Below are positions 50,155 to 52,997 of a stretch of DNA of 64,000 nucleotides, piece after piece (positions within the stretch are counted from its first letter, which is position 1; each line of letters opens with the position of its first letter). This DNA is from a virus (Duplodnaviria; Caudoviricetes): positions 1 through 64,000 of the IMG/VR virus record IMGVR_UViG_3300005336_000019. One strand, 5' to 3'. The position numbers and the translations under genes were made by a program. The notes beneath the pieces were generated by a model that was given only the letters and a program-made list of their open reading frames with translations, did not search any database and had not been told where the DNA came from.

Positions 50155-50298
50155 TTTTCCTTTTCCTCTCCGATACGAGAATGCGGGGGTCGCCTACTAC
50201 GACCGCAGGGGATCTTTCACCAGGAGAGCTGCCACGCAGATCACTGGAGTTGGCCTCACCCTGCCCAAGCGGAGTAAGGATTTCCGCAGGCACCGCCG

Positions 50299-50371
50299 TG
50301 CTCCTGGCAGGAATTGAACCTGCGACATCCGGATCCGGAATCCGGCGCTCTATCCCCTGAGCTACAGGAGC
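50299..50371 (-). tRNA. tRNA-Arg(CCG)
   Basis: Cloverleaf; anticodon arm CCGGA-TTCCGGA-TCCGG; no encoded CCA. Confidence 0.93.
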
Positions 50372-50380
50372 TTTCCTCTC

Positions 50381-50776
50381 TCACCAGATGTCGTACAGCA
50401 TCCGGCGAGGAACCTTCTCGGCCTTCTCGTACAGCCGACGTTCGAGTTCGCCCTTCGTGCGGCGCCCGGCTTCCAGCTTGCTCTTCACGTAGCGCCGGTT
50501 GGCGCGCTCGTGCTTACCAGCCCAGTAGGTCCGGCTGGAACTGGGGGTCCAGGCCCCGGTGTAGGTCCACCAGCGAGCGGTACGCCTCACCTTCCGGGGC
50601 TGCGGCCTGCGGCCCTGCCTCTCGGCGTCACGGAGTTCCGCAGCGCTGTAGCGCAGGTCGTAGACCTCGTGCTCGCGCACCGGAGTGATCGGCCGCTTGC
50701 GCCAGTACATCCTGTAGCCGTCAGGCCAGTCGCGCTGGTCGAACTTTCCGGGCGTGTGATGCGTCGTCTTGCCCAT
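50381..50776 (-). CDS. basic Arg/Trp-rich hypothetical protein within the tRNA cluster
   Basis: RBS AGGAGG; ends ...RMLYDIW. Confidence 0.8.
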   Translation of the reverse strand: MGKTTHHTPGKFDQRDWPDGYRMYWRKRPITPVREHEVYDLRYSAAELRDAERQGRRPQPRKVRRTARWWTYTGAWTPSSSRTYWAGKHERANRRYVKSKLEAGRRTKGELERRLYEKAEKVPRRMLYDIW

Positions 50777-50877
50777 CGGAATTCATCCTCCTAGGGCCGC
50801 GAATTTCGCGGACCTAGGTGAATCCGGTGACGATGTCCATCACCCCTCCAAGCTGTTCAGGCACGGTTGTTCCCAAG

Positions 50878-50975
50878 TGCGCGAGGCAGGGATCGAACCT
50901 GCACTGGACGTCTCCACAGGGCCTTTCCGAGTGCCCTGTTCGCCGGGCTCTGACTCGGAGTTCCCTTACACGCGC
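50878..50975 (-). ncRNA. tRNA-like RNA with aberrant D and anticodon arms
   Basis: Acceptor GCGCGTG/CTCGCGC; canonical T arm GCAGG-TTCGATC-CCTGC; 10-nt anticodon-position loop. Confidence 0.75.
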
Positions 50976-51066
50976 GACCGCACTGCGCAATGCGGTCCTT
51001 TACCACCGACTGTAATTCCGACCGGGTTTTTCAGACCACGGAAGGATATGGTGTCGTCGGCACACG

Positions 51067-51139
51067 CTCTCCTGACTGGACTTGAACCAGTAACATCCGG
51101 ATTAACAATCCGGCGCTCTGCCGGTTGAGCTACAGGAGA
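51067..51139 (-). tRNA. tRNA-Asn(GTT)
   Basis: Cloverleaf; loop TTGTTAA. Confidence 0.95.
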
Positions 51140-51274
51140 TCGAATCTGAAATTGTAGTGGGCCTCATCCCTAGCACCACGCGGCGCACCGACCTTGTTCT
51201 GCTGCGCTTCTCAACTGTTCCGGTTGTCGGGCGGATGGCAACCGGACCGCACTCCTATCTCCGCCACGTGCACG

Positions 51275-51346
51275 CTCCCCCGTCTGGACTTGAACCAAAA
51301 CTTCCGATTCCAGAGACCGGCGGTCTGCCAATTAACCTACGGGGGA
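51275..51346 (-). tRNA. tRNA-Gln(CTG)
   Basis: Cloverleaf; loop CTCTGGA. Confidence 0.93.
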
Positions 51347-51459
51347 TCGCTCTTGAATTGTTGGCAACCGGACGGCAATGCTTCCACGCATGGACTATCT
51401 TCGCATGTATGTCCCACCCGCCACAGTGGGGCTGCGTTGATAGCTTACCGTCCGGCCAG

Positions 51460-51535
51460 TGGCCCCGGCCCGATTTGAACGGGCGACCTCTCGCTTTTCA
51501 GGCGAGCGCTCTTTCGCGAACTGAGCTACAGGGCC
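51460..51535 (-). tRNA. tRNA-Phe(GAA)
   Basis: Cloverleaf; loop CTGAAAA. Confidence 0.93.
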
Positions 51536-51686
51536 TTGCACCCCTTGATGTATAGCTGGGCAGGGGCCGCCCTCCACTCGCCTCCCGGAGAAGGTTGGCT
51601 CATGGACTCGCTTTGCCTCACTCTCTGCCCGGTGGATAGTGGCCTTGTGAGCCACGAACTCCACCGGAATCTGCCTCCGAAGCCAG

Positions 51687-51760
51687 CGGTCCCGACGGGA
51701 TTTGAACCCGCGACCTCTCGGATGACAACCGAGTGCTCTGCCGAACTGAGCCACGAGACC
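51687..51760 (-). tRNA. tRNA-Asp(GTC)
   Basis: Cloverleaf; loop TTGTCAT. Confidence 0.95.
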
Positions 51761-51855
51761 ATTGCTTCTTACCGCTGTTGAGTTGAAAAGGGAGCCCCGC
51801 TTTCCCGGCCTCCGCCTTACGGCGGGGCTCCCGATAGACCCGTCAGGGGGTCTCG

Positions 51856-51929
51856 TGGAGATGGAGGGATTCGAACCCCCGTCCTTCCGATCCGTAGTCG
51901 GCTGCCCCATCCAACTGGGCCACACCTCC
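51856..51929 (-). tRNA. tRNA-Arg(ACG)
   Basis: Cloverleaf; loop CTACGGA. Confidence 0.93.
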
Positions 51930-52019
51930 ATCAGCCTTTCACCCTTCGCGCCAAGCGTGACCAAGGCAGGATCCAGGCCGACCGCATCCAAGCCCCAGGA
52001 AGCCGTGAGGATGCGGCAG

Positions 52020-52092
52020 TACGCCCTACTGGACTTGAACCAGTGACACGAGGATTAAGAATCCCCTGCTCTGCCAACTGAGCTAAGGGCGC
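52020..52092 (-). tRNA. tRNA-Lys(CTT)
   Basis: Cloverleaf; loop TTCTTAA. Confidence 0.95.
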
Positions 52093-52099
52093 GCGTTCT

Positions 52100-52222
52100 T
52101 CAGTTCTGTCTGTCGTCCTTGGGGCCCCAGTAGTGGCCCGTGTAGACGTGGACGGGGTATCCGTCCTTCTGCACCTTCTTCAGGTGCCCTTCGTACGTCC
52201 GAGCCTTGCACTTACAGCTCAC
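52100..52222 (-). CDS. small hypothetical protein (40 aa, MSCKCKARTY...)
   Basis: RBS AAGAAGGT before GTG. Confidence 0.6.
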   Translation of the reverse strand: MSCKCKARTYEGHLKKVQKDGYPVHVYTGHYWGPKDDRQN

Positions 52223-52378
52223 GATCGCACCTTCTTTCTTGTCCCGATTCCAACAGGAACCCCTGGTTTCCCGGGACAGCGTTCCACCAGGGGTCTGCCT
52301 AGCGTCCGGCCGGTTCTGTCCTCCCGATCCTTCTGCTGGCATACGGCTTACGGATTATGAGTCCGCGCCGCACCTTCG

Positions 52379-52452
52379 TATCCCTGACTGGACTTGAACC
52401 AGTGGCCTTTCCCTTATGAGGGGAGTGCTCTGACCGACTGAGCTACAGGGAT
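52379..52452 (-). tRNA. tRNA with CAT anticodon (elongator Met or Ile2)
   Basis: Cloverleaf; loop CTCATAA; lacks initiator hallmarks. Confidence 0.92.
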
Positions 52453-52457
52453 CTGCG

Positions 52458-52530
52458 AGCCCCCGACCGGAATTGAACCGATGGCATCCGACTTACGAAG
52501 ACGGCGCTCTACCGACTGAGCTACGGAGGC
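52458..52530 (-). tRNA. tRNA-Thr(CGT)
   Basis: Cloverleaf; loop TTCGTAA. Confidence 0.93.
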
Positions 52531-52798
52531 ATGAACTCCGGGTCCTAGGAGGGACGCAGACTTGCATGGGATAGCGAGCTGAGAAACAACGCTAGGCCCC
52601 GGAGTTCTGTCGGGAGAATCCTGCCCGATCTTTAATCGACCACCCGCTGGATCGATGGACAGGTTCCTCCCTTTGCGAGACACCAACCTCGCGATTCCCA
52701 GGCTGTAGACCTGGCGGCAGCGGGAACTGCGGACTCCGGGCGGAGTGGACGACGTCGTAAGGGAAAGAGGTACTTCCGATACGCCGCCCGGAGTCCAG

Positions 52799-52873
52799 TC
52801 GGAATGGCGGGATTTGAACCCGCGACCTCTCGCTCCCGAAGCGAGTGCTCTACGCAAGCTGAGCCACATTCCG
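52799..52873 (-). tRNA. tRNA-Pro(CGG)
   Basis: Cloverleaf; loop TTCGGGA. Confidence 0.95.
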
Positions 52874-52922
52874 ATTGAAGGTTCCCCAGGGTGACGGGGG
52901 GGTTGTAACCCCGGGGAACCAG

Positions 52923-52997
52923 CAGGGATAGCAGGATTTGAACCTACGACACGCCGCTTTGGAGACGGCTGCTCTGGCCGAACTGAGCTATATCCCT
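52923..52997 (-). tRNA. tRNA-Trp(CCA)
   Basis: Cloverleaf; loop CTCCAAA. Confidence 0.95.

Follow-up and report, generated by a model that had tools for sequence, protein, structure and literature searches.

A conserved tRNA-like four-way-junction domain in a ~190-nt RNA module of Streptomyces cluster-BM-like phages

An unannotated tRNA-like element in a phage tRNA array

What kind of RNA is encoded where a phage tRNA array carries a sequence with the acceptor stem, T arm, and discriminator base of a tRNA that tRNA finders pass over? The element considered here is 98 nt long and lies on the minus strand at 50878–50975 of the window, i.e., of the whole 64,000-nt stretch analyzed, which belongs to a 76.5-kb IMG/VR virus record with an estimated completeness of 40%. 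A first-pass annotation quoted its minus-strand sequence exactly and predicted that standard searches would assign it no isotype. As predicted, neither ARAGORN nor Rfam calls the element a tRNA. In the window, ARAGORN called 11 tRNAs, all of them minus-strand genes within 50298–52997, and Rfam at the gathering score returned the same 11; the element is not among these. When the region 50372–51066 was searched against Rfam at E ≤ 10, no match to tRNA, tmRNA, YrlA, T-box, ribozyme, or riboswitch families was obtained, and the single row listed, a long noncoding RNA with an E value of 0.78, was taken as a chance match. At E ≤ 1, Rfam gave no match at the element in the relatives L028 and L025. 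CCA is not encoded at the 3′ end of the element. Farther along the array (51761–51854, minus strand), between tRNA-Arg(ACG) and tRNA-Asp, a GC-rich hairpin followed by UUUU was recognized by eye as terminator-like.

The relatives of the window are Streptomyces phages of ~185 kb: JustBecause, Kela, Kradal, Satis, Quantum, and EhyElimayoE. Nine GenBank records were matched, and these six had a query coverage of at least 80%. Cluster BM was founded with Satis and JustBecause (PMC6687918), and the source of the window is a Streptomyces cluster-BM-like jumbo phage. In all six GenBank relatives, the homologous stretch is flanked by tRNA-Asn and by a gene for a hypothetical protein of 131 amino acids, and it carries no annotation in any of them. 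In the window, the upstream neighbor is tRNA-Asn(GUU) (51066–51139, minus strand, thus in the same orientation; called by ARAGORN and by Rfam with 70.7 bits), and the next gene downstream, beyond that for the 131-amino acid protein, is tRNA-Arg(CCG) (50298–50371, minus strand; ARAGORN and Rfam). The genome announcement counts 13 and 14 tRNAs on the basis of tRNAscan-SE and ARAGORN, and its main text does not mention the element (PMC6687918). As far as the literature was searched, the element is not described; the supplementary phage-hit lists of the Y RNA paper lay outside that search.

Fold of the 98-nt domain

Thirteen distinct variants were collected from the six GenBank phages, IMG/VR contigs, and metagenome contigs. 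Their comparison shows that the domain (50878–50975, minus strand), on which the covariance model R1 was built, has a conserved four-way-junction fold with a covarying acceptor helix, T arm, and GACG hairpin. All features described below are on the minus strand. The acceptor helix (50969–50975 with 50879–50885) is 94.5% paired across the variants and shows covariation; in the window, its seven positions comprise six standard pairs and a U·U at 6:67. A 2-nt linker leads to a long two-part arm (50918–50966) built of three helices: a closing helix, AGGG/CCCU (50963–50966 with 50918–50921; 88.5% paired), a middle helix, UCCGAGU/ACUCGGA (50953–50959 with 50926–50932; 90.7% paired, with five of seven pairs changed on both sides), and an apical helix, GCCC/GGGC (50945–50948 with 50933–50936; 90.4% paired). 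The apical loop has 8 nt in the window and is not conserved, ranging from 3 to 8 nt of unrelated sequence among the variants. A single invariant G (50917) separates this arm from a short hairpin (50905–50916; 96.2% paired, three of four pairs changed on both sides), whose stem has 4–6 bp in the relatives and whose loop is GACG in 12 variants and GACA in one. After a second 2-nt linker follows the T arm (50886–50902), a 5-bp stem, GCAGG/CCUGC, closed by the 7-nt loop UUCGAUC; it is 100% paired with three of five pairs changed on both sides, and the loop begins with UUCGA in 11 of the 13 variants. The discriminator (50878) is A73 in 13/13. Besides A73, the invariant positions are A9, the junction G, and the pair G1–C72, and C2–G71 is kept in 12 variants.

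Across the 13 variants, 93.5% of the cells of the four-way junction are paired, and 16 of its 31 pairs are changed on both sides. The covariation score was 0.382, compared with 0.192 in shuffled alignments, and was reached by none of 500 shuffles. All variants come from one phage lineage, in which kinship alone can beat shuffles; here, controls in which the pairing partners were slid by one to three columns argue otherwise, as their covariation did not exceed 0.116. The pairwise identity of the element averages 70% with a minimum of 44%. This is less than in the neighboring gene (82%), yet the helices persist, as is typical of a structural RNA. The sequences of Kradal, L024, L028, L009, and L026 are very divergent, and the two-part arm is still formed in them. 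For three variants, the long arm could be aligned by MAFFT only with uncertainty. In unconstrained folding, the minimum free energy (MFE) structure contained the acceptor helix, the long arm, the small hairpin, and the T arm in nine of the 13 variants; the full junction fold was missing from the MFE structure in the window, L008, L003, and L028. The window folded as a single sequence has an MFE of −44 kcal/mol (z = −2.63), and two of 200 shuffles were as good.

The first-pass annotation had drawn this sequence as a cloverleaf with a D-like arm and an anticodon-like arm of 7 bp and 10 nt, and had read the complementarity of CCGAGU in the former with ACUCGG in the latter as an alternative pairing. 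The two structures were compared on one basis, the same MAFFT alignment (A4) of the 13 variants. The tRNA-like acceptor, T arm, and discriminator A are present as described. The D-like arm can be drawn in the window but is not conserved (76.1% paired), and the anticodon-like arm fares no better: it is 75.8% paired, only one of its seven pairs is changed on both sides, and the outermost pair of its stem is kept in five of the 13 variants. The complementarity of CCGAGU and ACUCGG is real, and it extends to the 7 bp of the UCCGAGU/ACUCGGA helix, for which the covariation among homologs that had been suggested as a check was found. It does not represent a switch state; from the better pairing and covariation and a gain of 7.6 kcal/mol over the cloverleaf, it belongs to the native fold as a helix of the long arm. 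The corresponding energies in the window are −43.2 kcal/mol for the junction, −44.0 kcal/mol for the MFE structure, and −35.6 kcal/mol for the cloverleaf, placing the junction 0.8 kcal/mol above the MFE. As to the U8–A9 dinucleotide, A9 is invariant, but U8 occurs in the window only (1/13), the other variants having C (9/13) or A (3/13). The argument that intact stems speak against a decaying pseudo-tRNA holds in its conclusion, given the covariation in 13 variants, but not for the D-like and anticodon-like stems, which break.

The domain shares with canonical tRNAs the 7-bp acceptor stem, the 5-bp T stem with a UUCRA-type loop, and the discriminator base. The apical loops vary in both length and sequence, so there is no anticodon loop; since a conserved tRNA core (U8 and D loop) is also lacking, the domain cannot decode.

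The ~190-nt module, its downstream gene, and its distribution

The 98-nt element is the 3′ domain of a phage-specific structured module of ~190 nt (50878–51065, minus strand), which shows covariation over its whole length: 94.5% of the cells are paired, and 27 of 57 pairs are changed on both sides. Between tRNA-Asn and the acceptor helix lie 91 nt that are as conserved as the element (mean identity, 77%). This 5′ domain, also on the minus strand, starts one base after tRNA-Asn with hairpin H1 (51051–51065), a 4-bp stem with an invariant 7-nt loop GCCGACG; it is 100% paired, and two of four pairs are changed on both sides. It is followed by a variable hairpin, H2 (51017–51046; 88.0% paired, six of nine pairs changed on both sides), and by the segment GUCGGUGGUAAAG (50998–51010), which is invariant in 13/13 variants and has one exact copy in the window. 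The first six bases of GUCGGUGGUAAAG could pair with the H1 loop as a pseudoknot or closing helix, a pairing that shows no variation among the variants. By eye, the invariant GUCGGUGG (50998–51010) could pair either with the H1 loop or with (Y)CACCGG (50822–50832) in the upstream ORF (uORF) described below; the latter is a possible long-range switch. The last element of the 5′ domain is hairpin Px (50976–50997), with a 7-bp stem and a loop containing the invariant palindrome UGCGCA; it is 100% paired with five of seven pairs changed on both sides, and its last base directly abuts base 1 of the acceptor helix. In one sequence type (L012, L014, L018, L020, and L029), the 5′ and tRNA-like domains are absent, and the uORF, the hairpin after it, and the gene are kept. 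Because the two domains are missing together, we argue that the ~190 nt are one unit that is gained or lost as a whole.

Four runs labeled as RNA were mapped on 50290–51150. X20 alone is recorded as RNA; X17–X19 are either probably DNA or taken for RNA by guess only, and their pieces are short or loose-ended. X20 gave one contig of 188 nt at a depth of 16.5, which lies on 50883–51070 with eight differences and carries a compensatory pair also seen in locus L010. An RNA library thus contains the module of a close relative in a single piece; this is one study in which DNA carry-over is possible, and the contig shows neither RNA ends nor strand nor level. X20 gave no coverage of the uORF, the gene, or either flanking tRNA, a lack that is not readable as an expression level. 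The contig bridges the junction between Px and the acceptor helix, joining the 5′ domain to the tRNA-like domain, so that some molecules, if they are RNA, were not cut by RNase P at this point. Together with the abutting Px, this suggests that in part of the population the two domains stay joined.

The spacer between the element and the uORF is poorly conserved. The uORF (50814–50840, minus strand) has eight codons and a stop, MDIVTGFT*, with its own GGAGG at 50845–50849. TGFT-stop is kept in 14/14 distinct sequence types, among which synonymous changes are seen (ACC/ACU and GGA/GGC/GGG). The UAG stop lies inside the 5′ arm of the next hairpin (50790–50818, minus strand), which is near-invariant with a mean pairwise identity of 96%, compared with 82% for the gene of the 131-amino acid protein, and whose 3′ arm overlaps the AGGAGGA Shine–Dalgarno sequence of that gene. 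The arrangement looks like translational coupling or attenuation, in which the Shine–Dalgarno sequence would be opened by a ribosome reaching the end of the uORF.

The gene itself (50381–50776, minus strand) is always found downstream of the module and encodes a basic, Trp-rich orphan protein. It has 37 relatives, none with a Pfam domain, and ranges over this phage group and three weak Streptomyces matches; the block YDLRYSA...GRRPQPRKVRRT is common to three hypothetical proteins (P0035–P0037) encoded on Streptomyces chromosomes. No Pfam or PHROG family was found for the protein, and its AlphaFold2 model (mean pLDDT 69.8) had no fold match in the PDB at E ≤ 0.001. With neither family nor fold match, the protein was dropped as a functional clue to the RNA.

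Searches from the neighborhood of the element gave seven loci in IMG/VR (with the 131-amino acid protein) and nine in the metagenome collection (with the invariant downstream hairpin), and three further IMG/VR scans yielded nothing beyond the contigs of the protein search. In each of the five records searched whole, model R1 found one strong match per genome (77.6–110.3 bits), and true tRNAs scored at most 26.7 bits. The exact pattern of the 5′ domain was found in no stretch among 185,579 prokaryote species (one genome each). A looser pattern, the GACG hairpin plus T arm, gave 93 stretches in bacterial genomes; among the 80 of these 93 loci that were listed, two have a 5-bp T stem and one has an acceptor helix, their R1 scores do not exceed 28.5 bits, and ARAGORN run on 12 of the looser-pattern loci found nothing. 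From their T stems, acceptor helices, and R1 scores, these bacterial matches were rejected as homologs and regarded as chance or unrelated RNAs. The element is restricted to this phage group, with one copy per genome, and its position is constant, with a tRNA (or another tRNA-like RNA) on one side and the uORF-controlled gene on the other.

Proposed role, alternatives, and related RNAs

Here, we propose that the module is a stable phage noncoding RNA that is excised from the tRNA-array transcript through its acceptor/T minihelix, a reading that we hold to be rather probable. The minihelix is a coaxial stack of 12 bp with a canonical T loop, and its structure is conserved. Such a minihelix is known as the unit by which RNase P, enzymes of 3′ processing such as RNase Z, the CCA-adding enzyme, and T-loop modifiers recognize their substrates; recognized in this way, the module would be cut as a stable RNA from the polycistronic tRNA transcript. 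The same 3′ cut may also create the 5′ end of the downstream uORF-controlled mRNA. The processing by RNase P and RNase Z that the first-pass annotation put forward is plausible, judging from the 7 + 5 bp of the minihelix. The tRNA-like module of Mycobacterium smegmatis YrlA, whose acceptor stem likewise has 7 bp, is cleaved by RNase P and acquires a CCA end (PMC4201824). In the phage module, the stable hairpin Px abutting base 1 could hinder RNase P. As for the CCA tail, a phage CCA-adding enzyme was sought as PF01743 and found in none of the five records; with no such gene, and with no CCA in the tRNAs of the locus, host enzymes must tail the phage tRNAs. The conserved surfaces that are foreign to tRNA imply a specific partner, for which the long arm, the GACG, GCCGACG, and UGCGCA loops, and GUCGGUGGUAAAG would be the working surfaces.

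A further-reaching version of this proposal, which we put forward as speculative and consider unlikely as a whole, is that the ~190-nt module represents a new class of phage effector RNA: matured by the host, CCA-tailed and perhaps charged, it would recruit or trap a host or phage protein with its conserved GACG, GCCGACG, and UGCGCA loops and so protect or manage the tRNA pool. The candidate partners are a defense enzyme acting on the acceptor end or the repair set of Ro60 and RNA ligase that these phages encode. Phage tRNA arrays are now read as codon-supply or antidefense devices, and genes that tRNA finders do not call stay invisible to annotation pipelines. The RNA described here is supported by covariation, has no Rfam family, and is unannotated in six GenBank cluster BM phages. 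It raises the questions of what an acceptor/T minihelix does apart from decoding and how phages reuse tRNA maturation to make other RNAs and to punctuate operons; since JustBecause and Satis grow on Streptomyces lividans, the case is a tractable one.

Phage tRNA arrays have been linked to the evasion of tRNA-targeting defenses. The processed and CCA-tailed RNA might accordingly be a decoy or sponge that titrates a host factor binding the acceptor end or the elbow, e.g., a defense toxin modifying or cutting the tRNA 3′ end, EF-Tu, or the ribosome, as the first-pass annotation had supposed. The canonical minihelix, with G1–C72 and A73 invariant and C2–G71 in 12/13 variants, is what such a decoy would present; lacking an anticodon, it would be harmless to decoding, and it sits within a large phage tRNA array. 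However, an acceptor-end decoy needs no conserved long arm, GACG loop, or 91-nt 5′ domain, and the RNA-library contig joins both domains, so that a free 98-nt form may not dominate. We therefore regard a decoy function as improbable. A decoy for anticodon nucleases in particular is excluded, as the variants have no anticodon loop.

In Y RNAs of bacteria and phages, a tRNA-like module is joined to a Ro60 site that lies close to the 5′ end and has the motif GNCGAAN0–1G (GGUCCGA in vertebrates), according to the texts of PMC4201824 and PMC12135203. The module might thus be a Y-RNA-like second partner or substrate of the phage Ro60, with the helix or loop that carries GCCGACG as the Ro60 site and the tRNA-like domain as effector or stabilizer. 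A TROVE (Ro60) gene is present in four of five related records, the exception being the window's own 40%-complete fragment, and a "Ro-like RNA binding protein" is annotated beside an "RNA ligase" in JustBecause. GCCGACG lies near the 5′ end of the module and agrees with the motif at five of its six specified letters, a short and imperfect match. On the other hand, there is no YrlA match at Rfam E ≤ 10, and the order of the arms is that of a tRNA instead of the permuted T arm, acceptor hairpin, and D arm of YrlA. The JustBecause element is ~37 kb from the Ro gene on the opposite strand, and a better YrlA candidate (36.3 bits; gathering score, 69) adjoins the RNA ligase and Ro genes. Taken together, a role as a Ro60 partner appears doubtful, and decidedly so.

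The module could also act in cis, remaining on the downstream mRNA as a leader that regulates mRNA stability or translation jointly with the uORF and the Shine–Dalgarno hairpin. Its place directly upstream of the uORF, hairpin, and gene is fixed in 13/13 variants, and the pairing of the invariant GUCGGUGG with CACCGG of the uORF, seen by eye, would provide a connection. However, the sequence type in which the module is absent but the uORF, hairpin, and gene remain indicates that the control unit works alone, and the acceptor/T minihelix, as a processing signal, would detach the module from the mRNA. A purely cis-acting leader is thus another explanation to which we give little credence.

The remaining explanations, a decaying pseudo-tRNA or chance fold (tRNA arrays do gather pseudo-tRNAs) or an overlapping ORF of 58 amino acids (50814–50990) whose frame is open through the element in the window, are very improbable: all helices are kept via compensatory changes at identities down to 44% with invariant loop motifs, so that the pseudo-tRNA reading is contradicted by the covariation in 13 variants, and the frame is closed in JustBecause, Kradal, L009, and others.

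Returning to the excised RNA module that we favor, its tRNA-like domain can be likened to several known tRNA mimics, and by the features tested, it is outside tRNA, tmRNA, and YrlA. It resembles class II tRNAs in having an acceptor stem, a T arm, a discriminator base, and a short additional hairpin immediately 5′ of the T arm, but it lacks a D arm, a 7-nt anticodon loop, and a conserved position 8, and it is missed by ARAGORN and Rfam. The tRNA-like domain of tmRNA has the acceptor stem and T arm, no anticodon arm, a long helix, and further domains in common with the element. However, it is formed by the two termini of the RNA, whereas that of the element is contiguous, and the junction of the element is four-way with the extra GACG hairpin; no tmRNA was called at the element by ARAGORN or Rfam (RF00023), and the element has no tag reading frame. 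YrlA (RF02553), like the element, joins a tRNA-like module (T arm and acceptor-type helix) to parts foreign to tRNA, and it is found in Actinobacteria and their phages, the element being in Streptomyces phages. In the YrlA consensus, however, a permuted T arm, acceptor hairpin, and D arm lie inside a terminal stem, whereas the element is not permuted, has an open acceptor end and no D arm, and has no RF02553 match at E ≤ 10. According to PMC4201824, YrlA and the Ro60 gene share a strand and lie no more than ~4 kb apart; in JustBecause, in contrast, the element is at 123.6 kb on the plus strand and the Ro-like gene at 84.8–86.4 kb on the minus strand. In the small stable RNAs of the T4 tRNA cluster and in MALAT1/mascRNA, tRNA-like structures are embedded in longer transcripts, the tRNA-processing enzymes define the ends, and the products do not decode. 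The hosts differ, and the long arm, GACG hairpin, and 5′ domain are specific to the element.

Also encoded in the same genome as the element are Ro60 and an RNA ligase, together with a YrlA-like RNA and at least two other unusual tRNA-like genes. In JustBecause (83.5–90.5 kb; L039), the Ro-like gene and the RNA ligase gene lie beside a subthreshold YrlA-like RNA (L039:3834–3904; 36.3 bits), and this set looks like an RNA-repair or quality-control module of the jumbo phage. The same region also carries tRNA-Cys, tRNA-Ser, a "tRNA-OTHER," and tRNA-Ile.

A second kind of unannotated tRNA-like gene, 117–133 nt long, was seen at L028:268–400, L024:3414–3536, L026:12350–12472, and L012:1273–1390, and is absent from the corresponding position in the window. 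This gene combines a class-II-like D arm with a very long extra arm and an "anticodon" stem that is capped by GAAA or a 5-nt loop; the L012 copy scores 39.4 bits on the tRNA model, and ARAGORN calls part of the L028 copy "tRNA-SeC(tca)." The segment L025:2477–2602 scores 25.8 bits on the tmRNA model, under the cut-off. Finally, in the gap between tRNA-Arg and tRNA-Asp of JustBecause (L001:~2269–2437), an unannotated tRNA-like gene with a ~95-nt insertion was observed; its acceptor, D arm, and T arm are normal, and it has no counterpart in the window.
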